Below, one piece after another: positions 1-12,372 of a DNA stretch of 12,372 bases; the first letter of the stretch is position 1, and each line of letters starts with the position of its first letter. A program made the position numbers and the translations under genes. Below the pieces are notes generated by a model. The model saw only the letters and a program-made list of their open reading frames with translations, was not told the origin of the DNA and made no database searches. The DNA is from Planctomycetes bacterium RIFCSPLOWO2_12_38_17 (GTDB lineage: Bacteria; Planctomycetota; Brocadiia; Brocadiales; Brocadiaceae). The stretch lies in NCBI GenBank assembly GCA_001830285.1, contig MHYY01000153.1, forward strand, positions 1 to 12,372, read 5' to 3'.

Positions 1-601
1 ACATACCACAAGCCTTATCCGTATTTTTATAACATGACCAACTTATATGCAATGGTGCATCCAGAGAGACACCTATTTTTATAATTTCTGATTTCTTCTT
101 ATTTATAAGTGGAGTTTCCACTTCAATACAAGTTGTTGGTTTTGTTCCTAATTTTATTAATTTATTGAAGACGTCATAATAGGCTTGTTTACAATCAGGA
201 TAACCAGGACTGTCTTGTTCTACAGCACCAATAAATATCTTCTTTGCCCCTATTACCTCTCCCCACGAGACGGCAATTGTTAAGAAAAGTGTGTTCCTGA
301 ATGGGACATAAGATGTAGGAATTTCTTTGCTATCAGGATTTGCAACCTGGACATCAATATTTGAGTCCGTCAGGCTTGATCCTCCAACCTTACAAAGGTA
401 GTCAATATTTGCTGTAAGAATTCTGTTCCCTGGAATATTGTAAAAAGAGGCAATATCGTAAAATGCCTTAAGCTCCCTCGATTCTGTACGCTGACCGTAA
501 TTAACATGCAATAAAGCAAGTTGATATTGTTTGCTTGCTATCGCCGTTGCTACACAGCTATCTATACCGCCGCTTAACAGCACAATAGCAATATCTTTCA
601 T
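1..601 (-). CDS. queC: 7-cyano-7-deazaguanine synthase QueC. It is partial: the C-terminal end runs off the window at position 1.
   Basis: I translated the minus strand by hand from the ATG at 601-599. This gives MKDIAIVLLSGGIDSCVATAIASKQYQLALLHVNYGQRTE..., which contains the PP-loop SGGxDS motif. Further in come ...FIGAVEQDSPGYPDCKQA... and, at the window edge, ...DKACGM, the start of the C-terminal Cys zinc cluster. The frame stays open for all 200 codons. The gene is missing from the ORF track because it has no stop codon in the window. It begins 4 nt downstream of the queE stop, which suggests one operon. Confidence 0.9.
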   Translation of the reverse strand, partial: MKDIAIVLLSGGIDSCVATAIASKQYQLALLHVNYGQRTESRELKAFYDIASFYNIPGNRILTANIDYLCKVGGSSLTDSNIDVQVANPDSKEIPTSYVPFRNTLFLTIAVSWGEVIGAKKIFIGAVEQDSPGYPDCKQAYYDVFNKLIKLGTKPTTCIEVETPLINKKKSEIIKIGVSLDAPLHISWSCYKNTDKACGM

Positions 602-605
602 TTTG

Positions 606-1241
606 TTATACACCCCTAGTATCTGGTTCCCAGATATATTTATGTAGCTGAAGTTGGAATCTTACATTAAGATCGTCTTCCAGAATCCATTTAACCACAT
701 TCTTTGGATAGGTTGTACCAAATACAGTTCCTATCAAGACGTTTGTAATTTCAGATAAATTATATTTCTTTATTATATCTTTTGCCCAGTCATAATCGTT
801 TCTTGAATTTAATACAAATTTTACTTCATCAATTTTTGAAAGGTACTCAATATTCTTCCAGTTCATGAGGTGTGTCATGTAACTGTCTGGGCATTTTATA
901 TCCATTATTTTAATAGCTTCTTTTGAAATTATGCTGATATCGCAACTCCCATTTGTCTCAACCATAACTGTATGTTTTTTATTTATAAGTTCAGTAATTA
1001 AATAGGGCGTTTCAATGTTAAATAAAGGCTCACCGCCAGTTACACAAACTAATTTTGACCTTAGCGTATCAACGCTTTCAATAATTGAATTAATTGACAT
1101 TTCTTTCCCATCTTCAAAGGCATAAGTAGTATCACAGTAACTACAGCGCAAGTTACAGCCAGTTATACGAATAAAAATGCATGGTAAGCCCGCATATGAA
1201 GTTTCACCCTGAATACTCTTAAAGATTTCATTAATTTTCAT
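606..1241 (-). CDS. queE: 7-carboxy-7-deazaguanine synthase QueE (radical SAM)
   Basis: The 211-aa ORF has the N-terminus MKINEIFKSIQGETSYAGLPCIFIRITGCNLRCSYCDT. This is the QueE-type IFxSIQGE signature followed by the CxxxCxxC radical SAM cluster motif. Its size and its position next to queC both fit. Confidence 0.93.
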   Translation of the reverse strand: MKINEIFKSIQGETSYAGLPCIFIRITGCNLRCSYCDTTYAFEDGKEMSINSIIESVDTLRSKLVCVTGGEPLFNIETPYLITELINKKHTVMVETNGSCDISIISKEAIKIMDIKCPDSYMTHLMNWKNIEYLSKIDEVKFVLNSRNDYDWAKDIIKKYNLSEITNVLIGTVFGTTYPKNVVKWILEDDLNVRFQLQLHKYIWEPDTRGV

Positions 1242-1467
1242 GAGATGTATAAAATACTTAATTAATTTTAAATCGTAAATATTAATATTTCAATTTACTG
1301 TTTTATTATACTATAAATAAAATTTATTTAATCAATTATTTCATAACATTTATACTTAAATTAAGTTGAAATACAATTTCAAATAGCTTATATTCATTCC
1401 CGAATGAAATGTTACAAAATAATTATTTATATAAATTTATTGTTCATATTTTTAAGGAGGATAAATT

Positions 1468-2070
1468 ATGTCAACAATTATAAAAGATGATATTTTGCAA
1501 AAAAAGAGCAAGGAAACAGGTGGCAAAGAAAAAGTTAATAAAATAATGGATACAATTGTTGAATCATCATTGCATCCGACTATTGTTAAACCTGAAAAAC
1601 AAGCACCATCTGGACCAGCCAAACCCTCAAAAATAATTGCTAAACAAAATATTTTTAGCGGTGTAGTATTAATAGAGGGAGAAAATGCTGAAGACCTTAA
1701 TGATATAAAAGGAAGGCTTATAAATGAGCTAAAACCTTCGAATGAGATAGAGTCAATCATAGTAGACCGTATTATTTCTAATATATGGAGATTAAAGAGA
1801 TGTCTGAATATTGAGAGTCAGATTCTTGAGTATGAAACATCTTGTATTCAGGAATACAAACAAGGACTCTTTAGAGTCAAAAAAAGGACAGAAAAGGAAT
1901 TGAATCAATTAAAAGCCTTAAAGATTGCCGAAAACAGAAACAAGATTAGGGAATTAATAAATTATGAAACAATATTGGAAGAGCAAACATTTAAGGCTTT
2001 AAATGAGTTAAACAAAGTCAGGAGTCAAGATTCGAAACAAGAAAATAAGGCAAAAAAAACGAAGAAATAA
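1468..2070 (+). CDS. Hypothetical protein. It is Lys/Glu-rich and predicted to be helical or coiled-coil in its C-terminal half. Function unknown.
   Basis: This is a 200-codon open frame in DNA where stop codons are frequent. A strong Shine-Dalgarno sequence, AAGGAGG (1454-1460), lies 7 nt upstream of the ATG at 1468. The protein has a Pro/Lys-rich N-terminal segment, a central ...ENAEDLNDIKGRLINELKPSNEIESIIVDRIISNIWRLKR... block and a Lys-rich tail. I recognise no catalytic motif. Confidence 0.7.
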   Translation: MSTIIKDDILQKKSKETGGKEKVNKIMDTIVESSLHPTIVKPEKQAPSGPAKPSKIIAKQNIFSGVVLIEGENAEDLNDIKGRLINELKPSNEIESIIVDRIISNIWRLKRCLNIESQILEYETSCIQEYKQGLFRVKKRTEKELNQLKALKIAENRNKIRELINYETILEEQTFKALNELNKVRSQDSKQENKAKKTKK

Positions 2071-2091
2071 TCTTTATAATAAAGTAAATTT

Positions 2092-2122
2092 AATAAATAA
2101 CTTTGGATAAAAGTTGTTTATT
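2092..2122 (+). terminator. Possible weak, AT-rich stem-loop downstream of the hypothetical gene
   Basis: AATAAATAACTTT (2092-2104), a GGATA loop, then AAAGTTGTTTATT (2110-2122). This forms a 13-bp stem with one G.U pair. The stem is almost all A/T and no clear U-tract follows, so it is only a weak terminator candidate. Confidence 0.3.
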
Positions 2123-2274
2123 GCAACATAATATATATTATCGGACGTTATAAATTTTGTATGCAATCTTATCGTATTTTAGTAAATACATCCTATTCTC
2201 CCCTTTTATTTGTTTGTTGATTTATTTATAGATAATTTTTCTTGAAAATACGTAATTTTGAATAAAAATTGTTA

Positions 2275-2303
2275 TTGACAATATAAAATATGTCTGCTAA
2301 TAT
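2275..2303 (+). promoter_or_regulatory. Sigma70-type promoter candidate for the ACP/lipid operon
   Basis: TTGACA (2275-2280), a 17-nt spacer, then TAATAT (2298-2303). A TG at 2295-2296 sits one base before the -10 hexamer, giving an extended -10 of TGcTAATAT. The upstream flank is A/T-rich and UP-element-like. The site lies about 78 nt upstream of the ACP start. The AT-rich background raises the chance of a false positive. Confidence 0.5.
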
Positions 2304-2380
2304 CTTCAACTTATGATATAAATGAGCTAATTTAAGTATTCATTTTTCAAATTTTGCAAGTTATAAAAAGGAGGCAAATT

Positions 2381-2650
2381 TTGAACGCAGGAGATGTTGA
2401 AAAAGGTGTCACGGCAATTGTTGCCGAAGTAACTGAGTTAGATGAAAAAGAAATCTGGGAAAAGCGGGATGCAAATTTCTTTAAAGACCTTGAGATAGAT
2501 TCACTTTTAGCACTTGAGATACTTGCACTTATTGAAAAGAAATTTAAAATACAAATCCCTGAAGAAAAACTTGTTGATATTACATCTTTAAGCGCTACAA
2601 TTGGTTTGACAAAGACTGTGTTAGCCGAGAGTGGCAAACTCACTTCCTAA
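2381..2650 (+). CDS. Acyl carrier protein, a dedicated cluster-specific ACP
   Basis: The phosphopantetheine attachment motif DLEIDSLLALE is present, with the Ser codon at 2501-2503, and the helical ACP pattern ...ILALIEKKFKIQIPEEKL... follows. The ORF track starts at a TTG at 2354. I prefer the in-frame TTG at 2381 because AAAGGAGG (2367-2374) sits 6 nt upstream of it. This gives an 89-aa protein of typical ACP size. Confidence 0.88.
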   Translation: MNAGDVEKGVTAIVAEVTELDEKEIWEKRDANFFKDLEIDSLLALEILALIEKKFKIQIPEEKLVDITSLSATIGLTKTVLAESGKLTS

Positions 2651-2680
2651 TTTTATTGATAGTTAATTTAGCATGTCATA

Positions 2681-2747
2681 AGTTTTTACCCCCATTTATA
2701 TCCTTCTATATTATTATGATGGAGATAAAGGGTGGTAAAACTTTTTT
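2681..2747 (+). terminator. Imperfect long hairpin plus T-tract between the ACP gene and fabZ. It may be a partial terminator or attenuator.
   Basis: AGTTTTTACCCCC (2681-2693) can pair, with bulges, with GGGTGGTAAAACT (2730-2742). TTTTTT (2742-2747) follows directly. The intervening segment can extend the stem (TATCCT with GGAGATA, one bulge). The structure sits inside the 151-nt ACP-fabZ spacer. Confidence 0.35.
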
Positions 2748-2801
2748 ATAGAAAAAGAAAATTAAATATTTAGTTAATTATAAATAGAGGTAAATATATC
2801 T

Positions 2802-3251
2802 ATGATACTATTTGAGGAAATTCGGAACCTACTACCTCAAAAATATCCTTTTTTGTTCATTGATAGGGTTGTTGAGTTTGAAGAAGGAAAGAAAATTGTT
2901 TGTGTGAAGAATGTCTCTGGAAACGAACCTGTTTTTGTTGGCCACTTTCCTGATTTTGCAATCATGCCGGGTGTTTTAATAATAGAAGCAATGGCACAGG
3001 CATCAATAATATTATTTAAAAAGAGTCTGGCTATTAAACATGGTGAGAACACAGTTTTTTTGCTTGCTTCTGTTAGTAATGCAAGATTCACGAAACCAGT
3101 TTTCCCAGGCGACCAGCTTTTAATTGAAATTATTGTTGAAAAGATTGTTTCAAAGGGAGCTATAGTTCACGCAACAGTAAATGTTGGCGAAAAAACAGTT
3201 GCAAAAGCTAATTTAACTTTCGGTATTGCTGAAAAAGGCACATTAATATAG
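2802..3251 (+). CDS. fabZ: 3-hydroxyacyl-ACP dehydratase, FabZ family (hot-dog fold)
   Basis: The 149-aa protein begins [57 protein letters not shown]. This aligns almost residue for residue with the E. coli FabZ core. The catalytic His (GHFP, codon 2943-2945) and Glu (IEAMAQ) are both present. GAGG (2787-2790) lies upstream of the ATG. Confidence 0.95.
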
Positions 3252-3255
3252 TTCT

Positions 3256-4473
3256 ATGAATAGACGCGTAGTAATAACAGGCGTGGGGATGATAACCCCT
3301 ATAGGTTCTGGTAAAGATGTCTTCTGGAAATCGCTTATCGCCGGAGAATCCGGGGTTGATAATGTAACATGTATTGATACATCTGAATATAAAGTTCATA
3401 AGGGATGTGAGGTTAAGAACTTTAATTATTCAAATTATATCAAGAACGGCGTACTTAAGAAGATCGGTAAAGGCTCACAGTTTGCTATAGCAGCTACAAA
3501 GCTTGCTCTGGATGATGCGAGAATTGATTTTAATAATATAGATTTGGAGAGAATTGGGGTTTCTATGGGAACAACTGCAGGTGAAATACAAATTCTTGAA
3601 AAAGTCAACTATATACGCCATAAAGAAGGAGAAGATAATGTAGACCCTGATTTATTTTTAATGCATCCGTGCAACAACATCCCTGCTAACATTGCAATCG
3701 AATTTGGTTTTAAAGGACCAAATACCATTATTCCTACTGCATGTGCAGCTGGTAATTATGCGATTGGATATGCTTATGACCTTATCAAATTTGGCAGAGT
3801 GGACTTGATGGTTGTTGGCGGCTCAGATCCGTTTTCTAAAGTTGCATACACAGGTTTTGCAAGGTTAGGAGCAATCGCACCTGAAATATGCCAGCCGTTC
3901 GATAAGAATAGAAAAGGAATGATGGTTGGTGAAGGCGCTGGGATGCTTCTTCTTGAGTCACTTGAACATGCACAAAAAAGAGGTGCTAACATTTATGCAG
4001 AAATTATAGGTTATGGTCTTAGTTGTGATGCATATCATATTACCATTCCGCATCCGGACGGCGAGGGTGTGGTTTCCGCTATGAAGAAAGCACTTCAAAG
4101 TGCAAACTTAAAACCTGAAGATGCTCAATATATTAGCGCTCATGGCACAGGAACTCCTTCAAATGATAAGGCAGAAACAATTTCAATAAAAAAAGTATTT
4201 GGTGACAAACCAAAGAATCTTGCCATTAGTTCAATAAAATCTATGATTGGGCATACTATGGGTGCGGCAAGCGCAATTGAGGCTATTACATGCGCGTTAG
4301 CTGTACAGAATGATATAATACCACCAACAATTAATTATGAGACGCCCGATCCCGAGTGCGACTTGGATTATGTTCCTAATGTAATGCGGAAGCAGAAGGT
4401 AAATATCGCACTAAACAATGCCCATGCATTTGGTGGGAACAATAGTTGTTTGGTCGTGAAAAAATTTACATAA
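3256..4473 (+). CDS. fabF: Beta-ketoacyl-ACP synthase, FabF/KAS II-like, catalytically intact (KS-alpha-like subunit)
   Basis: The 405-aa protein has a complete Cys-His-His triad. The Cys lies in [12 protein letters not shown] (codon 3742-3744), the first His in [14 protein letters not shown] and the second His in [15 protein letters not shown]. The C-terminus [14 protein letters not shown] is typical. The gene starts 4 nt after the fabZ stop. Confidence 0.93.
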
Positions 4474-4503
4474 TAAGAAATTTACTGCTTGTTAGAGTAT
4501 ATT

Positions 4504-5745
4504 ATGGAAAAAACAAGAATTGTTGTTACAGGTATTTCAGTCATCTCCCCTGTTGGGACAGGGAAAGATGAATTTTGGAAAAACTTGACAAATGGTGTAT
4601 CAGGTATAAAGCCTGTTACTCTGTTTGATGTGAGTAAGTTTAACAGTAAACAAGCCGGTGAGATAACTGATTTTGATGCAAAAGTGTATTTAGGACCAAA
4701 GGGCATTCGCCACATTGACAGGACTTCCCTGCTTGTATCTTCAGGGACTGTGCTTGCTTTCAGAGACGCCAACATTGAAAGCAATACTTATAGCGAAGAC
4801 GAATTAGGAATTGTTGTTGGCTCAACTTATGGGAGTATCGATAGTATTAGTTCGTTTGATTTTCAGTCTTTGCGTGAAGGTCCCAATTATGTTAATCCAA
4901 TGGATTTCCCCAATACAGTGTTGAATGCGCCTGCTAGCCGTGCCTCCATTTTCTGTAAAGCCAAAGGTCTTAACACTACGATTTCAAATGGTGTAACAAG
5001 CAGTATTGACGCTATTATTTATGCATCCGATTTTTTACGTATGGGTCGAGCAAGGGCAGTAGTCGCTGGTGGAGTACATGGATTAACCCATGATATATTC
5101 TGGGGTGCGCATAATTCAAAAATTTTAGCAGGAAGCAGGAATGGAACGCTGGAAATTAGCTCGCCTTTTGATAAAAGAAGAAACGGAATGATTATCGGTG
5201 AGGCTTCAGCACTTGTTTTCCTTGAGACACTGGAAGATGCACTTAAGAGAAATGCTCATATATATACAGAGATTAAAGGTTACGGAACTGCATTTGATCC
5301 AAAGATGTCTACAACAAAAAATTATCAGATTGAAGGCAACAAGCGTGCTATTATAGATGCAATAAAAAATGCCAATTTAACAGTACACGATATTTCCTGC
5401 ATTTATGCAAATGCATATTCAGGCGTCTATGGCGATATTATGGAAACGCTTGCTATTAAAGATGCATTTGGTATGAAATCAAAACTAATACCTGTAACAG
5501 CTATCAAGTCAATGACTGGGGAGTGTTTTGATGCATCTGGTGCTTTACAAACAATAGCCGCCATCATGTCAATTAGAACAAATACTATTCCACCCACAAT
5601 TAACTATAAGGAACCTGACCCCGAGTGTGATTTAGATTATGTACCTAATAATAGCAGGGTTGTTCCTGTTAAAAACGTGCTCATAAATTCATTTTCACGC
5701 CTTGGCAACAGTTCTGCCTTAATAATTTCAAAATACAAACAATAG
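4504..5745 (+). CDS. Ketosynthase paralogue lacking the catalytic triad. It is chain-length-factor / KS-beta-like.
   Basis: The protein has the thiolase/KS fold throughout: VVTGISVISPVGTGKDEFW at the N-terminus and INSFSRLGNSSALII at the C-terminus. The active-site Cys position reads TTISNGVTSSIDA (Val codon 4993-4995). His1 reads ANAYSGVYGD (Tyr) and His2 reads KSMTGECFDASGA (Glu). The ORF track starts at a TTG at 4489. I prefer the ATG at 4504 (MEKTRIVVTG), which matches the KS N-terminus, although neither start has a clear RBS. Confidence 0.85.
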   Translation: MEKTRIVVTGISVISPVGTGKDEFWKNLTNGVSGIKPVTLFDVSKFNSKQAGEITDFDAKVYLGPKGIRHIDRTSLLVSSGTVLAFRDANIESNTYSEDELGIVVGSTYGSIDSISSFDFQSLREGPNYVNPMDFPNTVLNAPASRASIFCKAKGLNTTISNGVTSSIDAIIYASDFLRMGRARAVVAGGVHGLTHDIFWGAHNSKILAGSRNGTLEISSPFDKRRNGMIIGEASALVFLETLEDALKRNAHIYTEIKGYGTAFDPKMSTTKNYQIEGNKRAIIDAIKNANLTVHDISCIYANAYSGVYGDIMETLAIKDAFGMKSKLIPVTAIKSMTGECFDASGALQTIAAIMSIRTNTIPPTINYKEPDPECDLDYVPNNSRVVPVKNVLINSFSRLGNSSALIISKYKQ

Positions 5746-5748
5746 TAC

Positions 5749-7203
5749 ATGTTATCATCAGAAGTAGGCATACAATCCACAAAGAGAAATAAAATATACT
5801 CACATTACGACGTTATTATAATTGGCGCAGGTATAGCAGGTCTTGTTTGTGGTGCATTTCTCGCCAGAAGTGGAAAGAAAGTACTCGTAGTTGAACAACA
5901 TTTTATTCCAGGTGGTTACTGCACATCTTTTAAAAGGAAGGGATTTAACTTTGATGCGGCAGTTCATCATATAGGAGGTTGCGGCAAGTGGAGCATTGTT
6001 GGTCGTTGTTTTAAAACACTCGGAATTGAGATGGATTTTTATCACCTCGATCCAATGGATAATTTAATCTTTCCAAGCTTCAATATAGAAATCCCCGCTG
6101 ATTTAGAGAAATACATATCACAGTTACAAAATCGCTATCCTTCTGAAAAAGAAAGTCTTAAGAATTTTTTTCAGGATTACGTGAAGTTATATCGGGCTAC
6201 GTTCAACATTGAAAAGAGTCAAATCATTGATAAATACAAAGACCAGACATACGCTGAGATGTTAAATAGTTTTTTTGGGAATGAAGAACTAAAGATGGTG
6301 CTTTCTGGTCAGTGGGGTTATATAGGTCTCCCCCCTACTCAAGCGTCTGCCGTCGGTATGTGTCAAATGATGATTAATTATTTAAAGGACGGTGCATTTT
6401 TTCCGGCTGGTGGCACTCAAGAGTTTACGAATGCAATTTTTAAGAAATTTATTGATTTCGGTGGACATGTCATGTTATCATCCGAAGCAAAAGAAATTCT
6501 TTTAGATAATAAAAGTGTAAAAGGTGTTAAATTACACGACGGCAAAGAGATACCTGCTAGCACAGTTGTTTCAAATATAGATGCATATCAAACTTTTTTT
6601 TGCTTACTTGATGGTAATATAGATGCAACCTTCCTTGAAAAAATTGGAAAAATGAAGGAAAGTTGTTCTTTTTCCCTTCTGTATCTTGGTTTAGGAGAAG
6701 AACCGGATTTAAGTAAATTAATTAGGGGTTTTTATCATACATCTATAGATACAGATGATATGGATAAAGAGTGGATGTATATTTCCGTCCCAACAAAGAT
6801 TTATCCAGGGTTGGCTCCAAAAAATAAACAAATAATATCAGTAGTTGTTTATTTTAAAGATGAATTGTATAATAATATTAGCAATTGGAACTCTTTTAAA
6901 GAAGAAATGACGACGAGAACTATTAGTCGTCTCGAATCATATGTTCCAAATATAAAAAATTATATCGAGGTTAAAGAAGCTGCTACGCCAAAAACTCTTG
7001 AGCGATATACTTTAAACAAGAATGGTGCCGCATATGGTTGGGCAGTTAGTGTTAATCAAATATGGGAAAACAGGTTACCCCAGAAAACGCCAATTAATAA
7101 TTTATATTTAACAGGCCACTGGACAAGACCCGGTCCTGGAATTTGTGCCGTTGTCTCTTCTGGCTGGGGTGTCTCAAATTTAATAATGGAGAATTGGAGG
7201 TAA
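5749..7203 (+). CDS. FAD-dependent oxidoreductase, phytoene desaturase (CrtI/CrtISO/RetSat-like) family
   Basis: The 484-aa protein has an N-terminal dinucleotide-binding fold, YDVIIIGAGIAGLVCGAFLARSGKKVLVVEQHFIPGGYCTSF, with GxGxxG at 5824-5841. The C-terminal segment NLYLTGHWTRPGPGICAVVSSG is the type of C-terminal FAD motif found in the CrtI family. The gene starts 3 nt after the preceding stop. I cannot tell from the sequence whether it acts as a desaturase, isomerase or saturase. Confidence 0.82.
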   Translation: MLSSEVGIQSTKRNKIYSHYDVIIIGAGIAGLVCGAFLARSGKKVLVVEQHFIPGGYCTSFKRKGFNFDAAVHHIGGCGKWSIVGRCFKTLGIEMDFYHLDPMDNLIFPSFNIEIPADLEKYISQLQNRYPSEKESLKNFFQDYVKLYRATFNIEKSQIIDKYKDQTYAEMLNSFFGNEELKMVLSGQWGYIGLPPTQASAVGMCQMMINYLKDGAFFPAGGTQEFTNAIFKKFIDFGGHVMLSSEAKEILLDNKSVKGVKLHDGKEIPASTVVSNIDAYQTFFCLLDGNIDATFLEKIGKMKESCSFSLLYLGLGEEPDLSKLIRGFYHTSIDTDDMDKEWMYISVPTKIYPGLAPKNKQIISVVVYFKDELYNNISNWNSFKEEMTTRTISRLESYVPNIKNYIEVKEAATPKTLERYTLNKNGAAYGWAVSVNQIWENRLPQKTPINNLYLTGHWTRPGPGICAVVSSGWGVSNLIMENWR

Positions 7204-7212
7204 ATAATAATT

Positions 7213-8673
7213 ATGAAAAGAAAAATGATGTTAATTAACCCGCACAACCCTGGTAGATGTGGGGAAGAGAGTATTACAGTAATTGTACAGATGCCTCTGA
7301 ATCTTGCTTATATTGCCGCCCTTACACCTGGTGATTGGGAATTTGATGTCATTGATGAAAACATTGATCTCGCAATGGATAATAATGGTGAAATTACCTT
7401 TGCCCCTGTTGATCTAGTATGTATTACTGCGGTTACCTATCAATCTCCTAGGGCATATAAAATTGCCACTGCATGCAGAAAGAGGGGTATGCCTGTAATT
7501 ATGGGTGGTATACATACCTCTGTAATGACAGAGGAGGCTGTAAATTATGCCGATGCAGTTTTTGTAGGCGAGGCAGAGGATGTATGGCCGCAAGTAATTA
7601 GGGACTTTGAAGCAGGTAAACTGAAAAAGGTTTATAATGGTGGTTTACCCCCCCTATCCTTGATGAAAAAAGTATATCCTAATCGTGAGATCATGAAAAG
7701 GAAATACAATTATAAATTCTCGTCCATCGTAACAACTAAAGGATGTCCAAATTACTGTGACTTCTGCAGCGTTCCAACATTCCAGGGTAGAAAATTCAGG
7801 GAGAGACCATATGAAGATGTGCTTGATGAAATGGCCGCGACGGATTATAAGGGACTGATGCTTGCAGAGGATAATTTCTACGGACACGGAAAAAAGTCAA
7901 ACGAAAGGGCAAGAAATCTTTTTAAAGGGATGGTGGAAAAGGGTATTAAAAAAGATTGGCTGGGATTTACAGCCCTGAACATATCTCAGGATAAAGAAAC
8001 TTTGGATTACATGGCTAAAAGTGGTTGTTTTGGAATGCTTATCGGTATTGAATCAACCAATGAAGCTGTTTTACAGAAGATGAATAAACGTGTAAACCTG
8101 AAATTGGGTACAGATAGTTATTTTGACTGCATCCAAAAGATTCACGACGCAGGATTAGTTGTTTGGGGCTCAGTCGTATTTGGCGCCGATGGTGATGATA
8201 AAGATTCCTTTAAGAGGATGACAGACTTTATACTTGAAAATAATATTGATATTTTGACATTTGGAATAAATTGCCCCTTTCCCAAGACACAATTATATGC
8301 AAGATTGGATTCCGAAAAGAGGATCTTCAGGAAGAATTATCCGGAGGATTGGCAATACTATGATACAGCGCATGTCGTTCACAGATTTGTTGACATGACA
8401 CTCGAAAATTTCATTGATGGTATGCAGTATGTATACGACCATATTTATGCAGGCGATAACTTAAGAACCCGTTTCAGGAACTCAATCAAGACTACAAACA
8501 ACCCAAGAAACTCCATGTTTGCATTCAGGGTAGGCTCTGATTGGAAACAGGTATTTGAGCAGGTATTGCAGAACTTGAAAGAATTATATAATTCTGGTGA
8601 TTATTATGTTGACTGCTATAAGTCAAAAGCTGTAACAGTTGAAAAACCTATCTTGGAAACTGCCACAACATAG
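7213..8673 (+). CDS. Radical SAM enzyme with an N-terminal cobalamin (B12)-binding domain (class B radical SAM)
   Basis: The 486-aa protein has a CxxxCxxC motif in TTKGCPNYCDFCSVP, with Cys codons at 7744-7746, 7756-7758 and 7765-7767. A Rossmann-like B12-binding-type N-terminal domain precedes it (...DLVCITAVTYQSPRAYKIATACRKRGMPVIMGGIHTS...AVFVGEAEDVWPQVI...). TGGAGG (7195-7200) lies upstream of the ATG. The gene starts 9 nt after the preceding stop. Confidence 0.9.
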   Translation: MKRKMMLINPHNPGRCGEESITVIVQMPLNLAYIAALTPGDWEFDVIDENIDLAMDNNGEITFAPVDLVCITAVTYQSPRAYKIATACRKRGMPVIMGGIHTSVMTEEAVNYADAVFVGEAEDVWPQVIRDFEAGKLKKVYNGGLPPLSLMKKVYPNREIMKRKYNYKFSSIVTTKGCPNYCDFCSVPTFQGRKFRERPYEDVLDEMAATDYKGLMLAEDNFYGHGKKSNERARNLFKGMVEKGIKKDWLGFTALNISQDKETLDYMAKSGCFGMLIGIESTNEAVLQKMNKRVNLKLGTDSYFDCIQKIHDAGLVVWGSVVFGADGDDKDSFKRMTDFILENNIDILTFGINCPFPKTQLYARLDSEKRIFRKNYPEDWQYYDTAHVVHRFVDMTLENFIDGMQYVYDHIYAGDNLRTRFRNSIKTTNNPRNSMFAFRVGSDWKQVFEQVLQNLKELYNSGDYYVDCYKSKAVTVEKPILETATT

Positions 8674-8705
8674 TATGTTGATACATAAATAAAGTAATAC
8701 AATAT

Positions 8706-8748
8706 AAAGGCACATCAACAGTTTAATTGATGTACCTTTCTGTATTTT
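8706..8748 (+). terminator. Rho-independent-type terminator ending the lipid operon
   Basis: AAAGGCACATCAA (8706-8718), an 8-nt loop, then TTGATGTACCTTT (8727-8739). This forms a 13-bp stem with one C/A mismatch. A T-rich run, CTGTATTTT, follows. The structure begins 33 nt after the radical SAM gene stop. Confidence 0.6.
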
Positions 8749-8801
8749 GATTAGATTCTCTTATGAGCGATTTCCTCAAGTAGTCAGCAAAAGGACAGGA
8801 C

Positions 8802-8830
8802 TTGTTAACTTAAGTAAAATATCCTAAATT
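8802..8830 (+). promoter_or_regulatory. Candidate sigma70-type promoter for the micro-ORF/lpd unit
   Basis: TTGTTA (8802-8807), a 17-nt spacer, then TAAATT (8825-8830). The site lies just downstream of the operon terminator and 21 nt upstream of the ATG at 8851. The hexamers are weak and the DNA is AT-rich. Confidence 0.3.
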
Positions 8831-8850
8831 AAGGAAAGGGAGGCCAAGTA

Positions 8851-8979
8851 ATGATTGGCAAATTATTATCTTTATCAATGGAAAAATCAATTATTCCTGA
8901 CATCAGTCCAAAGGCAATTTTGATTATTACAATTGCACTTATTTTTGTTATATTGTTCACCTGGAAAAAGGAGGGATAA
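8851..8979 (+). CDS. Putative 42-aa small membrane protein. This micro-ORF is not in the supplied ORF track.
   Basis: The ATG at 8851 follows GGGAGG (8838-8843) after a 7-nt spacer. The translation is MIGKLLSLSMEKSIIPDISPKAILIITIALIFVILFTWKKEG*. It contains one clear hydrophobic helix (AILIITIALIFVILFTW) followed by KK. Its TAA stop (8977-8979) directly abuts the TTG start of lpd at 8980, and the lpd Shine-Dalgarno sequence lies inside its last codons. Confidence 0.4.
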   Translation: MIGKLLSLSMEKSIIPDISPKAILIITIALIFVILFTWKKEG

Positions 8980-10419
8980 TTGCCTGATAGGAACTCAACC
9001 TTTGACCTTGCTATCATTGGTGGAGGTCCAGGTGGTTATGTAGCTGCAATAAAAGCTGCCCAATCAGGATTAAAAACTGCTCTTGTTGAAAAGAATAAAG
9101 TCGGCGGTACATGTTTGCATCAGGGTTGTATCCCAACAAAGGCACTTCTTTACTCTGCCGATCTTTATAAAAAGTTTCAAAGGGCAAATGAATATGGAAT
9201 TGCAACTGATAAATTAAGCTTTGATTATTCACAGTTTCATCGTCGTAAAGAAACCGTTGTTAAGCGCTTATTTCAAGGGGTTCAATTTTTACTAAAAAAG
9301 AACGGTGTCGAGGTTTTCGAAGGAGAAGGGTGTCTTACATCTCCAAATAACATATCTATACGAAAAAGTAAAACAGAAATCGACAAGATAAATGCTAAAT
9401 ATATTATATTTGCAACTGGGTCTATTCCTCTCATACCTATTTCAATTCCTTACGATAAGAAATATATACTTACAAGCGATGATATTTTAGTACTTGAAAA
9501 AATACCGAAGTCCATCATAATTGCAGGCGGTGGTGCCGTAGGGATAGAATTTGCACATCTATTTAATATACTCGGGGCAAAAGTTACAATCATAGAACTT
9601 CTGGACGATATCCTCCCGTCCGAAGATAAAGACATCAGTACCACGTTGAGAAAGATATTTATTAAAAGAGGTATAGATGTCTTCACAGGTACCTCTCTTG
9701 AAAAAGTTGAAATTAATAATTGTGCTAATGTTACAATAAAGAGAAAAATATCCCTACCCCCTATCGGCACCGAGAGTTTTACTTATCAAAATGAGTTTTT
9801 AAAGGTAGATTGCTTGCTCCTCGCATTAGGCAGAACACCCGCATTAAGTAATATTGGCTTAGAAAGTTTATATTTGAATTTTAAAGGAAATAATCTTCAA
9901 ATTAATGAAGTAATGGAAACAAGTCAAAAAGGGCTTTTTGCAATCGGAGACATTACAGGCCCCCCTCTCCTTGCCCATAAAGCCTCAAAACAAGGCTTAA
10001 TTGCTGTAGATTATATTTCAGGAAAGAAACCAATTCCGTTAAATTATCAGAATATCCCTAGGGTAACATACTGTTCTCCACAAGTTGCCAGTATTGGGGT
10101 CACACAGGAAGAGGCAGAAAAGAAAAGATACAAAATAAAAACCGGAAGATTCCCTTTTATAGCTAATAGTAAGGCAATTATAGATGGGGATTATGAAGAT
10201 GGATTTGTGAAAATCATCGCAGATGAAAAACACGGTGAGATTTTAGGACTTCATGCAATAGGACCAAATGTAGGTGAGTTCATATGGGGTATATCTCTTA
10301 CTACTGCACTTGAAGGAACGGCTCATGAACTATCAAATAATATATTTCCCCACCCTACTCTGTCTGAATCTATTTTAGAAGCAGCCCTTGCTGTGGTTGG
10401 TAAACCAATCCATAATTAA
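8980..10419 (+). CDS. lpdA: Dihydrolipoyl (dihydrolipoamide) dehydrogenase, the E3 component
   Basis: The 479-aa protein has the FAD fold FDLAIIGGGPGGYVAAIKAAQSG and the redox-active disulfide GGTCLHQGCIPTKALL. It also has the NAD fold IIAGGGAVGIEFAHLF, the GDITGPPLLAHKA motif and the C-terminal HPTLSE catalytic His-Glu motif. It uses a TTG start at 8980, with AAGGAGGG (8968-8975) just upstream. Confidence 0.93.
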   Translation: MPDRNSTFDLAIIGGGPGGYVAAIKAAQSGLKTALVEKNKVGGTCLHQGCIPTKALLYSADLYKKFQRANEYGIATDKLSFDYSQFHRRKETVVKRLFQGVQFLLKKNGVEVFEGEGCLTSPNNISIRKSKTEIDKINAKYIIFATGSIPLIPISIPYDKKYILTSDDILVLEKIPKSIIIAGGGAVGIEFAHLFNILGAKVTIIELLDDILPSEDKDISTTLRKIFIKRGIDVFTGTSLEKVEINNCANVTIKRKISLPPIGTESFTYQNEFLKVDCLLLALGRTPALSNIGLESLYLNFKGNNLQINEVMETSQKGLFAIGDITGPPLLAHKASKQGLIAVDYISGKKPIPLNYQNIPRVTYCSPQVASIGVTQEEAEKKRYKIKTGRFPFIANSKAIIDGDYEDGFVKIIADEKHGEILGLHAIGPNVGEFIWGISLTTALEGTAHELSNNIFPHPTLSESILEAALAVVGKPIHN

Positions 10420-10492
10420 TCTGTCTAACTATGAACGTTTCTCAGAAATATACAACCCTTATAGAATCAATTAATAAATAATCCAATCAAAA

Positions 10493-12190
10493 ATGAACAA
10501 CAAGGCAAAGATTGCGTATTTTTCAATGGAGATTGGTCTCTCGAACAATATGCCAACTTACAGTGGTGGTTTGGGAGTCCTTGCAGGAGATACTATAAAA
10601 TCAAGCGCTGACCTTAAAATCCCTCTGGTTGCCGTTACATTAATTTCTAAAAAAGGCTTTTTCCGCCAGGATATTGACCCAGAAGGAAGACAGATTGAAT
10701 ATCCCGTGAATTGGGAACCTTCCAAATATTTGATACATTTACCTAAAAAGGTGGATGTGCAAATTGAAGGTCGTAAAGTTTGTATTTATGCGTGGAGTTA
10801 CAAAGTACGAAGTGTTACAGGCGGGGAAGTTGAAATTATATTTTTAGATACAGATAACAAAGAGAATACAACAGAGGATAGAGAAATTACTGCCTACTTA
10901 TATGGCGGTGATGATTGTTATAGACTTAAACAGGAGATTGTGCTTGGTATTGGAGGTGTGCGAATGCTCCATGCACTTGGATTTCATATAAATAAATATC
11001 ATATGAACGAAGGCCACGCCAGTTTCCTTACGCTTGAATTGTTGATAATGAGCAAGAGAGATGTTGAAAGCGTCTGGGACGAAAGGTGGGTATGGGATCT
11101 CGATGCTGTTAAAGATTTATGTGTCTTTACTACTCATACACCGATTGAGACTGGTCATGACAAGTATACTTATGATTTAGTAAAGAAAGTTCTCGGTGAA
11201 ACAGTACCAATTGAGATACTTAAAACACTCGCTGGTGAAAATCAACTTAATATGACATTGCTTGCACTAAATTTGAGTAAATATGTTAATGGTGTAGCAA
11301 AAAAACATGGTGAAGTTTCTAAAAGTTTATTCCCTGGTTACGAGATTAATGCAATTACAAATGGTGTTCATTCTTTCACATGGACATGTGGAAGTTTTGT
11401 GAAATTATACGATAAATATATTCAAGGATGGGCAAATGAACCAGAGTTATTTGTCCGCTCAGAAACCATACCTGATGAAGAATTATGGGAAGCCCATATT
11501 AAAGCCAAGGATGATTTATTATCTTTTGTAAAACAGACTAATGGTATCGAATTAAATAGAGAATCATTAACCATTGGATTTGCAAGGAGATTTACTTCAT
11601 ACAAGAGGGCTGACTTAATTTTTACAAATCTGGAAAGACTTTTAAAAATAGGCGAGAAATGGAGTATACAGATTATTTACGCTGGTAAGGCACATCCAAA
11701 AGATACTCCAGGAAAGGATATAATAAAAAGGATTAATGAAATTGAAAAGACAATCAGGGACAAAATCAGAGTCGTCTTTTTGAAGGATTACAATATTGAT
11801 ATGGCATTAAAACTGATTTCTGGTGTTGACGTTTGGTTAAATACCCCCTTGCGTCCACGAGAGGCATCGGGCACTAGTGGTATGAAAGCTGCCCATAACG
11901 GTGTAATAAATTTCAGCATTTTGGATGGCTGGTGGATCGAAGGACATATTGAAGGCATTACAGGATGGTCTATAGGTCCAAAACCATTTGAAACTTTACT
12001 TACCAACACAAACGATGCAGCCGATGCGGAAGATTTATATAATAAATTAGAAAATACAATTGCGCAGATATATTATAATGATAAAGAACAATGGATAAAA
12101 ATCATGAAGAACTCTATAAGTAAAATTGCTTATTATTTTAACAGTCACCGCATGATGCGCCGGTATGTAACAGAGGCATATCTAAGATAA
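10493..12190 (+). CDS. glgP: Alpha-glucan (glycogen/maltodextrin) phosphorylase, short-form GT35 family
   Basis: The 565-aa protein has the N-terminus IAYFSMEIGL...MPTYSGGLGVLAGDTIKSSADLKIPLVAVTL, followed by HMNEGHASF. The PLP-lysine region PREASGTSGMKAAHNGVINFSILDGWW is also present. All of these are characteristic of the alpha-glucan family phosphorylases. Confidence 0.92.
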   Translation: MNNKAKIAYFSMEIGLSNNMPTYSGGLGVLAGDTIKSSADLKIPLVAVTLISKKGFFRQDIDPEGRQIEYPVNWEPSKYLIHLPKKVDVQIEGRKVCIYAWSYKVRSVTGGEVEIIFLDTDNKENTTEDREITAYLYGGDDCYRLKQEIVLGIGGVRMLHALGFHINKYHMNEGHASFLTLELLIMSKRDVESVWDERWVWDLDAVKDLCVFTTHTPIETGHDKYTYDLVKKVLGETVPIEILKTLAGENQLNMTLLALNLSKYVNGVAKKHGEVSKSLFPGYEINAITNGVHSFTWTCGSFVKLYDKYIQGWANEPELFVRSETIPDEELWEAHIKAKDDLLSFVKQTNGIELNRESLTIGFARRFTSYKRADLIFTNLERLLKIGEKWSIQIIYAGKAHPKDTPGKDIIKRINEIEKTIRDKIRVVFLKDYNIDMALKLISGVDVWLNTPLRPREASGTSGMKAAHNGVINFSILDGWWIEGHIEGITGWSIGPKPFETLLTNTNDAADAEDLYNKLENTIAQIYYNDKEQWIKIMKNSISKIAYYFNSHRMMRRYVTEAYLR

Positions 12191-12192
12191 GC

Positions 12193-12372
12193 ATGCATAA
12201 AATCCTCATAAATGTTAAGGCTTTTATTTTTGACCTTGACGACACACTTTATGATTGTAGTGGTACTCTTGTATTACATGGACGGAAAAAGGTTGCAAGT
12301 AAGATAGCAAATTTAATTAATTGTTCAGAAGAAGATGCATATCTTCTCCAATTTAAAATAGAGGAAGAATAC
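12193..12372 (+). CDS. HAD-superfamily hydrolase. It is partial: only the N-terminal 60 codons are present and the gene runs off the window.
   Basis: The ATG at 12193 lies 2 nt after the glgP stop. The hand translation is MHKILINVKAFIFDLDDTLYDCSGTLVLHGRKKVASKIANLINCSEEDAYLLQFKIEEEY. It contains HAD motif I, DxDxT (FDLDDTLY). The frame is open to the window end. Confidence 0.7.
   Translation, partial: MHKILINVKAFIFDLDDTLYDCSGTLVLHGRKKVASKIANLINCSEEDAYLLQFKIEEEY

Follow-up and report, generated by a model that had tools for sequence, protein, structure and literature searches.

How ladderanes are built, the most strained natural lipids known, has been unsolved since 2002; these lipids are a biomarker of a process that removes a large share of the oceans' fixed nitrogen and have been proposed as a scaffold for high-energy fuels. 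A contig of Planctomycetes bacterium RIFCSPLOWO2_12_38_17 (MHYY01000153.1, positions 1 to 12,372; this whole stretch of 12,372 nucleotides is called the window here) carries six genes in one direction on the + strand, encoding an acyl carrier protein (ACP), a FabZ dehydratase, a ketosynthase (KS), a KS-like protein, a CrtI-like flavoenzyme and a radical S-adenosylmethionine (SAM) enzyme with a B12-type domain (Table 1), raising the question of whether such a set serves ladderane synthesis and whether its presence is tied to ladderanes at all. We find that the window cluster is almost certainly an orthologue of the published Cluster I of anammox bacteria (kuste3603-3608), for which we lean towards a part in ladderane synthesis, and that native copies of the same cassette exist in high-GC uncultured Myxococcota, Acidobacteriota (Vicinamibacteria-type) and non-Brocadiales Planctomycetota.

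Cluster I is already known, having been studied since 2009, and is under active structural study; a sequence-only reading of the window had taken the gene set for the candidate ladderane cluster of anammox Planctomycetes, and its orthology with kuste3603-3608 bears this out (PMC2649909, PMC4790861). Gene order and strand are identical to those of the Kuenenia copy (CP049055.1, locus L094), where the same 42-amino-acid open reading frame (ORF) and the same dihydrolipoyl-dehydrogenase-like (Lpd-like) gene also follow downstream. Identities to the Kuenenia proteins are 91% for the ACP, 79% for FabZ, 88% for the KS, 80% for the KS-like protein, 71% for the flavoenzyme and 85% for the radical SAM enzyme, whereas the adjacent Lpd-like protein (window 8980-10419 versus L094:11649-13073) reaches 63%, below all the cluster proteins (71-91%). 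The six-gene order recurs in two more distant loci of Brocadiales type, being identical in L002, and the cluster is kept in all anammox genera sampled (Brocadia, Jettenia, Kuenenia, Scalindua and groundwater lineages). The window and Kuenenia copies differ in their setting: GC content is 35.2% in the window and 41% in the Kuenenia locus; Iso_dh lies upstream in Kuenenia where the window has QueC, QueE and a 200-amino-acid protein; and around the Kuenenia copy lie several genes for transposases and one for a group II intron reverse transcriptase (L094 1-934, 13388-21461), whereas no mobile element occurs near the window copy.

The layout and domain calls of the sequence-only reading, with six co-directional genes, tight junctions, an ACP gene 151 nt upstream of the rest and a list of named motifs, hold throughout. 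The intergenic gaps are, in order, 151, 4, 30, 3 and 9 nt, every named motif is present, and all six proteins pass Pfam gathering scores (PP-binding, FabA, ketoacyl-synt N and C in both KS proteins, Amino_oxidase/NAD_binding_8, and B12-binding with Radical_SAM). For the four proteins resembling fatty acid synthase (FAS) components, the best matches in the PDB are crystal structures of anammox-specific proteins. The ACP, with its phosphopantetheine site at Ser41 in a DSL motif, is of the anammox-specific rather than the canonical type, matching 7AUF, 9S5I_E and 7QV0_D at E=1e-44 to 8e-36, as against about 1e-6 or weaker for canonical ACPs. Its start is a TTG lying 6 nt past a GGAGG (2370-2374), as public gene calls agree, the mechanical ORF list beginning at 2354. 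FabZ carries the motifs GH48FP and IE62AMAQ, scores 152.8 bits against NF000582 (cutoff 113) and matches 8AYD at E=8e-73 and 7QV0 at E=2e-59. The published amxFabZ signature comprises Ile69 in the tunnel (canonically Gly) and Ser/Thr96 and Val/Ile115 (canonically Lys/Arg) (PMC10139942); in an alignment with an E. coli FabZ reference sequence, the window protein shows Ile69, Thr96 and Val115. The characterized amxFabZ orthologue dehydrates (3R)-3-hydroxyacyl chains on amxACP only, rejecting the organism's own canonical ACP, with a strong preference for C6-C8 chains and poor activity beyond C8 (PMC10139942).

The two KS proteins form a pair of one live and one dead enzyme. The triad is intact in the first (C163/H296/H333; best PDB match 9S5H chain B, E=3e-250), while the KS-like partner (9S5H chain C, E=1e-229) has V/N/E in the Cys/His/His columns; its gene starts with the ATG at 4504, as in public gene calls, with an in-frame TTG at 4489. 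The same residues were tabulated for Kuste3606 as Val163/Asn298/Glu333 (Table 2 of PMC2649909), and across anammox bacteria amxFabFmut has Val (Thr in Scalindua) in place of the Cys and Asn, Glu or Cys in place of the two His, amxFabF2 retaining Cys-His-His (bioRxiv 10.64898/2026.05.19.726425). [quoted passage not shown] The KS/CLF pairs of type II polyketide synthases (PKS), such as ishigamide Iga11/Iga12 and that of actinorhodin, likewise place an active KS beside a homologue that is inactive; against 6KXD, a ketosynthase of Iga11 type, the window KS scores E=1.5e-100. Classical aromatic-PKS CLFs, however, have Gln at the Cys position, where the window KS-like protein has Val, and, unlike highly reducing type II PKS pairs, the anammox pair is FabF-derived and sits in a lipid context without ketoreductase, cyclase or tailoring genes.

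The flavoenzyme combines a G26xG28xxG31 motif with a conserved C-terminal GHWTxPGPG and falls below the curated NCBIfam cutoffs (TIGR02734 crtI_fam, 160.8 versus 238.1; carot_isom, 170.8 versus 586.9). Its AlphaFold model (pLDDT 85.7, pTM 0.89) predicts the three-domain CrtI-type fold, closest to 4REP (TM 0.82) and also near 5MOG (TM 0.74) and 4DGK, that is, to CrtD, CrtI and PDS; with the CrtI/CrtD/PDS desaturases and CRTISO isomerases it shares the fold and the FAD Rossmann GxGxxG at 15-20% sequence identity. The subfamily is small, 280 protein clusters at E<=1e-60 drawn only from anammox bacteria and cassette carriers, and the window protein is 59-79% identical to its Brocadia, Jettenia, Kuenenia and Scalindua counterparts.

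The radical SAM enzyme, 91% identical to a Brocadia sinica JPN1 protein and 85% to that of Kuenenia stuttgartiensis, has a C178xxxC182xxC185 motif that is invariant across 18 homologues, and scores 38.7 bits for PF02310 B12-binding (versus 32.1) and 54.5 bits for PF04055 Radical_SAM (versus 29.5), with no NCBIfam model at cutoff. The best NCBIfam match, TIGR04072 rSAM_ladder_B12, reaches 88.4 bits against a cutoff of 360 and was set aside as a different family despite its name; it is also far below cutoff for the additional radical SAM enzymes of loci L091 and L093. In its AlphaFold model (pLDDT 85.8, pTM 0.86) the predicted fold lies nearest to AprD4, MgmA, TsrM, TokK, CysS and OxsB (TM 0.58-0.68, identity 12-18%): the class B radical SAM enzymes TsrM, TokK, CysS, MgmA and OxsB, together with AprD4, share the Rossmann-type B12 domain, the radical SAM barrel and CxxxCxxC. 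AprD4 has a cobalamin-type domain yet is not known to use cobalamin; CysS, to judge by PDB entry titles, offers a precedent for pantetheine-tethered substrates. The anammox orthologue has not yet been obtained in active form (PMC10139942).

The family tree of the radical SAM enzyme (neighbour-joining, midpoint-rooted, no support values) divides into five groups: a Cluster I clade, a kuste2803-type clade (L003, L004), a clade around locus L090, and two clades 53-63% identical to the window enzyme. From these last two clades and a nearby outlier come five loci with a complete colinear cassette (Table 1; taxon labels of metagenome-assembled genomes, MAGs, are those of their submitters), in the same order as in the window, from ACP, FabZ, KS and dead KS to an amine-oxidase/CrtI-fold enzyme and a B12-type radical SAM enzyme. 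Their GC content is 60-72%, against 35-52% in Brocadiales loci, and because the GC of each cassette equals that of its flanks these copies are neither chimeras nor recent imports. Identities to the window proteins range from 38 to 62% across the cassettes (in L085: ACP 58, FabZ 51, KS 57, KS-like 38, flavoenzyme 45 and radical SAM enzyme 58%), and against Cluster I the high-GC radical SAM and KS proteins reach 57-62% and 51-57% identity, more than the 49-51% and 41-45% that they reach against the kuste2803/2804 type. The KS triad is intact in all five, its partner is dead in all five (AFD, ECD, SGE or EHE), residue 69 of FabZ is Ile or Leu in four (Ser in L092), and its residues 96 and 115 are non-basic in every case. 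Residues regarded as anammox-specific are therefore largely properties of the cassette.

Around the high-GC cassettes lie accessory genes for FabG-type reductases, FabD (above cutoff), a phosphopantetheinyl transferase (PPTase), ketoacyl-ACP synthase III (KAS III), crotonases, an FdxA-like ferredoxin, a second B12-type radical SAM enzyme, extra KS pairs, an FGE/EgtB-like domain and a cyclase-like protein, with a PaaK-like ligase and an OlsC/LpxO-like lipid hydroxylase in addition in L091. No enoyl reductase gene was found in the window cluster or in any extended cassette examined. None of the named matches for non-anammox cassettes is a cultured organism, all being MAGs or metagenome contigs, and in a search that we do not claim to be exhaustive we found no paper that reports the entire Cluster I cassette and its signature residues from bacteria other than anammox. 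The "ladderane BGCs" (biosynthetic gene clusters) published for many phyla are loose antiSMASH calls, such as 1.2-kb fragments with a KS and an ACP, and cannot be equated with the cassette.

Partial assemblies accompany the complete ones. A Planctomycetota locus of 72% GC (L088) has the KS, the KS-like and the radical SAM genes, a flavoenzyme gene of the same subfamily apparently lying elsewhere in the MAG, and a locus of 40.7% GC (L095:8610-11395, JGI 3300010413) holds only the flavoenzyme-radical SAM pair; there the radical SAM enzyme is 73% and the flavoenzyme 45% identical to the window's, a HEPN/nucleotidyltransferase pair stands upstream, and ACP, FabZ and KS genes are lacking. In L089 and L092 the FabZ and KS genes are separated by the gene for the FGE/EgtB-like domain protein. 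The run of a flavoenzyme, two radical SAM enzymes, a KS and a KS-like protein in L089 and L091 was considered as a fusion of Cluster I with kuste2803-2805 and set aside for want of support, the second radical SAM and KS proteins being equidistant from both types (50-53% and 39-42%).

What might such a cluster make? It is most likely a dedicated ACP-dependent module of type II FAS/PKS-like character that contributes to ladderane lipids. The amxFabF2/amxFabFmut pair would decarboxylate malonyl-amxACP for priming and then elongate a short chain (~C6-C8), whose 3-keto group would be reduced by a ketoreductase encoded outside the cluster; amxFabZ would then dehydrate the product, taking amxACP-bound substrates only. 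On the resulting enoyl- or polyenoyl-amxACP the flavoenzyme might introduce double bonds or isomerise them, and the radical SAM enzyme might abstract a hydrogen atom to form a C-C bond, or transfer a methyl group. The dedicated carrier, the specificity of amxFabZ, the heterodimer, the decarboxylation and the C6-C8 preference have been shown in orthologues that share 79-91% identity with the window proteins. The parts played by the flavoenzyme and by the radical SAM enzyme, the ladderane link and the choice among the three published routes are what we infer, and any specific role for either of these two enzymes is tentative at best. The biochemistry so far agrees best with the route that builds a short linear chain on its own and attaches it afterwards to a ladderane moiety, and the lack of an enoyl reductase in the cluster and the extended cassettes fits an unsaturated intermediate. 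In favour of the ladderane link are the retention of the cluster in every anammox genus sampled and the stronger conservation of its proteins, between the window and Kuenenia, than of the adjacent Lpd-like protein.

Genes for a ketoreductase, enoyl reductase, malonyl transferase, KAS III, PPTase, thioesterase or acyltransferase are absent from the window and from the 10 kb on either side (in identical public contigs). The sequence-only reading had noted their absence from the window and concluded that partners must be encoded elsewhere, which agrees with our search; its description of the operon as self-contained does not survive, as its own text had conceded.

Several lines of evidence weigh against a ladderane role for Cluster I. 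Expression of kuste3603-3608 in E. coli gave all six proteins but neither ladderanes nor polyunsaturated fatty acids (PMC4790861), so that the function remains unproven, as the sequence-only reading had already cautioned. Isotope labelling is compatible with canonical synthesis of the linear lipid part only, and not with polyene-cascade or ring-by-ring routes to the ladder (PMC10139942), and the authors of the structural work state that there is no direct evidence of ladderane making by any Cluster I protein (PMC10139942; bioRxiv 10.64898/2026.05.19.726425). The flavoenzyme kuste3607 showed no phytoene desaturase activity and failed to replace crtI in vivo (PMC4790861), and the window radical SAM enzyme, whose predicted fold comes nearest to the solved structure of AprD4, may or may not bind and use cobalamin. 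The structural papers hold that only ladderane producers have the cluster (PMC10139942; bioRxiv 10.64898/2026.05.19.726425), a claim that the complete cassettes on contigs of 60-72% GC, two of them from labelled MAGs, do not bear out: full cassettes on non-Brocadiales contigs, with a dead KS and mostly with the FabZ signature, mean that the cassette alone is not diagnostic of ladderanes. A block shared with organisms that make no ladderanes and yield an ordinary product had been named in advance as counter-evidence; the block does occur in bacteria of non-anammox type, with no product assigned to it. The negative outcome of heterologous expression, together with the labelling data and the cassettes outside anammox bacteria, tempers our confidence in the ladderane role, leaving it somewhat favoured.

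It is possible, if doubtful, that the product of the cassette is a short acyl or polyenoyl unit, modified but not in itself specific to ladderanes, which anammox bacteria have in common with Myxococcota, Acidobacteriota and other Planctomycetota that are uncultured. Cyclobutane rings would then come from other loci (such as kuste2802-2805 or kuste3335-3352) or not from these genes. Full colinear cassettes native to high-GC contigs, with a dead KS in all and a bulky FabZ residue 69 in four of five, speak for such a unit, as does the closer kinship of the high-GC radical SAM and KS proteins to Cluster I than to the kuste2803/2804 type. So does the company the cassettes keep, with genes nearby for FabG, FabD, a PPTase, a crotonase and a ferredoxin as well as further KS/CLF pairs and another B12-type radical SAM enzyme, together with the negative E. 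coli result and the case of Desulfotalea psychrophila, which has related clusters and no ladderanes (PMC2649909). Identities of only 38-62%, however, mean that the chemistry may differ, ladderane-like products may be made in the uncultured carriers, and in anammox bacteria the cluster is universally conserved and highly expressed.

Three further readings fare much worse. A type II PKS cluster for aryl polyenes or another pigment, which we regard as very improbable, would account for the KS and dead-KS pair, the ACP, the hotdog dehydratase, the lack of an enoyl reductase and the ApeI-like and ApeP-like families among the precomputed Pfam matches of FabZ, but such clusters are not known to carry CrtI-fold and B12-type radical SAM genes. 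Nor does the window or the 10 kb on either side contain an adenylating or aryl-loading enzyme, a ketoreductase, a thioesterase, an acyltransferase or an export gene, and the four FAS-like proteins match anammox-specific structures far better than any others. Equally improbable is a set of redundant paralogues of housekeeping fatty-acid synthesis without a special product: FabZ and KS do score near the housekeeping FabZ and FabF models, but amxFabZ rejects canonical ACP and is poor beyond C8 (PMC10139942), one KS is dead, Kuenenia has its canonical FAS II elsewhere (kustd1386-1391; PMC4790861), and the tight linkage to the flavoenzyme and radical SAM genes would be left unexplained. That the flavoenzyme marks a carotenoid or isoprenoid pathway, with the FAS genes mere neighbours, is the least credible of all. 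Its top NCBIfam matches are indeed carotenoid isomerase and crtI_fam and its predicted fold is nearest CrtD/CrtI, yet the scores fall far under the cutoffs, the Kuenenia orthologue did not complement crtI (PMC4790861), gaps of 3 and 9 nt separate the gene from its neighbours in a linkage to the KS pair and radical SAM gene that is retained across phyla, and no phytoene or squalene synthase gene is nearby.

As one more orthologue of the leading candidate cluster, the window by itself leaves the picture of ladderane biosynthesis unchanged. The occurrence of the same cassette in unrelated bacteria weakens the exclusivity argument behind the ladderane assignment, and the non-anammox cassettes come bundled with helper enzymes that the anammox version lacks. 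We tentatively suggest that either cyclobutane/ladderane-type lipids or close relatives are made outside anammox bacteria, or the accessory genes are the missing partners that would explain the negative result in E. coli. If the cassette is indeed neither an anammox invention nor specific to ladderanes, then ladderane-like lipids would extend beyond anammox or the partner enzymes would now have names; self-contained clusters, for instance of the L093 type, offer alternative targets for heterologous reconstitution. Anammox bacteria have no genetic system of their own.

Table 1. Features of the window and complete cassettes found outside anammox bacteria
Feature	Position	Strand	Support or description
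amxACP, dedicated acyl carrier protein, 89 aa	2381..2650	+	Pfam PP-binding 51.5 bits; PDB 7AUF
amxFabZ, 3-hydroxyacyl-ACP dehydratase variant	2802..3251	+	NF000582; PDB 8AYD, 7QV0
amxFabF2, active ketosynthase	3256..4473	+	PDB 9S5H chain B; Cys163/His296/His333
amxFabFmut, dead CLF-like KS partner	4504..5745	+	PDB 9S5H chain C; Val/Asn/Glu
CrtI-fold FAD flavoenzyme ("PDH", kuste3607 orthologue)	5749..7203	+	Pfam Amino_oxidase + NAD_binding_8
Radical SAM enzyme with N-terminal cobalamin-binding-type domain (kuste3608 orthologue)	7213..8673	+	Pfam B12-binding + Radical_SAM
Sigma-70-like promoter candidate, TTGACA-17 nt-TAATAT with TG extension	2275..2303	+	10/12 matches; ~78 nt 5' of ACP start
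Hairpin ahead of CUUUUUUAU, within the 151-nt spacer between ACP and FabZ	2684..2749	+	spacer minimum free energy -29.3 kcal/mol, z -2.3
Hairpin, weak intrinsic-terminator candidate	8706..8739	+	5+7 bp stem, one C.A mismatch, fold z -2.1
Small hydrophobic ORF, 42 aa (MIGKLLSLSMEKSIIPDISPKAILIITIALIFVILFTWKKEG)	8851-8979	+	own GGGAGG ribosome-binding site; skipped by most gene callers
Complete cassette, L085-87			"Acidobacteria bacterium 13_1_40CM_2_60_7", soil MAG, GCA_036790625.1
Complete cassette, L091			Myxococcota MAG GCA_964649065.1
Complete cassettes, L089, L092, L093			metagenome contigs

Relatives of parts of the cluster occur in other arrangements, a reference-genome scan returning at least four close loci. 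The B12-type radical SAM enzyme of kuste2802-2805 (ACP synthase, radical SAM, FabF and a non-canonical FabB) belongs to the window enzyme's family, with 52-55% identity (62% in L096), and units of kuste2803 type (L003, L004, L096) also pair a live with a degenerate KS, but they begin with the radical SAM gene, followed by the KS pair (KS 48% identical), and have no ACP, FabZ or flavoenzyme. In L096 such a unit is joined by crotonase, ketoreductase and muconolactone-isomerase-like genes; a small protein of this last kind stands beside radical SAM/KS units in two unrelated loci (L089:13026-13412 and L096:15775-16113). Related clusters of FabF paralogues, radical SAM and phytoene-dehydrogenase-like genes, mainly syntenic with kuste3335-3352, have been reported from Desulfotalea psychrophila, Geobacter and Pelobacter, the first of which makes polyunsaturated hydrocarbons and no ladderanes (PMC2649909). 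Two Geobacter MAG loci (L013:10001-17296 and L017:6871-15613) probably correspond to the clusters that Rattray et al. noted in Geobacter; they encode two B12-type radical SAM enzymes, a KS, a short KS-like protein and FabZ, with no flavoenzyme gene of the window's kind within 10 kb, and their radical SAM enzymes are, among the matches listed, 33-36% identical to that of the window. A stand-alone radical SAM paralogue (L090:7398-11425, GCA_051388875.1, 44.5% GC), 59% identical to the window's, adjoins not FAS genes but menaquinone genes of futalosine-pathway type (VitK2_biosynth and a CofH_C radical SAM), several members of its clade being labelled Brocadiales.

The host of the window is an anammox bacterium of the Brocadiaceae, as its GC content and the identities of the radical SAM enzyme and flavoenzyme to Brocadia and Kuenenia proteins indicate. 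Each of the six cluster proteins finds its best match in Brocadia or Kuenenia, the window DNA shares 99.9% identity with the metagenome contigs L081 and L083, and a multihaem cytochrome gene lies on the same contig; a hydrazine synthase gene was not found on the DNA studied (the window and the identical public contigs).

Expression signals at the cluster are faint. The promoter proposed at 2275-2303 exists as a site, but the window contains 68 promoter-like sites against 53.7 +/- 6.5 in shuffles, near chance in AT-rich DNA, and taken alone it is not significant. Of the hairpin and T-tract proposed downstream of the cluster, the hairpin is real, while the T-tract is interrupted on the + strand (CTGTATTTTG) and the stem is mismatched with a modest fold score; the scan flagged the hairpin on the minus strand only, where it pairs better (G.U for C.A), and no minus-strand gene terminates there. 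Both elements being statistically weak, we dropped them as independent evidence for an operon. The hairpin in the ACP-FabZ spacer may possibly act as a partial terminator or attenuator, perhaps raising ACP expression above that of the downstream enzymes; in the Kuenenia cluster the corresponding gap is 48 nt and the hairpin is not conserved. A cobalamin riboswitch or other structured RNA, sought upstream and in this spacer, was rejected, the best Rfam hits having E values of 0.18 and 0.9 and both being intragenic.

Upstream, the cluster is flanked by a partial QueC gene, QueE and the gene for the 200-amino-acid protein, which has no family assignment; downstream lie the Lpd-like gene, an alpha-glucan phosphorylase gene and a partial HAD hydrolase gene. 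No tRNA, Rfam family, repeat or insertion sequence (IS) element was detected in the window, in keeping with the earlier remark that mobile-element signatures are absent, and the description of the cluster as a core-genome trait fits this lineage. The 200-amino-acid protein (window 1468-2070, + strand) is rich in Lys and Glu, matches nothing in Pfam or NCBIfam, and is present on all the identical metagenome contigs though not upstream of the Kuenenia cluster.

The stop codon of the 42-amino-acid ORF immediately abuts the TTG start of the Lpd-like gene, and 37 of its 42 residues are identical to those of the ORF at the same position in Kuenenia (L094:11520-11648). Since the ORF is not present after the cluster in L001 and L002, it travels with the Lpd-like gene and not with the cluster; the two were considered as cluster genes 7 and 8 and are treated as neighbours, following the cluster only in the window lineage and Kuenenia and not in L001 or L002. 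Some 0.6-1.7 kb past the right end of the window (L081:15762-16817), four genes downstream of the radical SAM gene with its B12 domain, are genes for two cobalt-transporter parts, CbiM and a PDGLE-domain protein, a proximity that may be coincidence; cbiOMQ also appears in a figure of ecologically relevant genes comparing anammox with non-anammox bacteria (PMC9387917).

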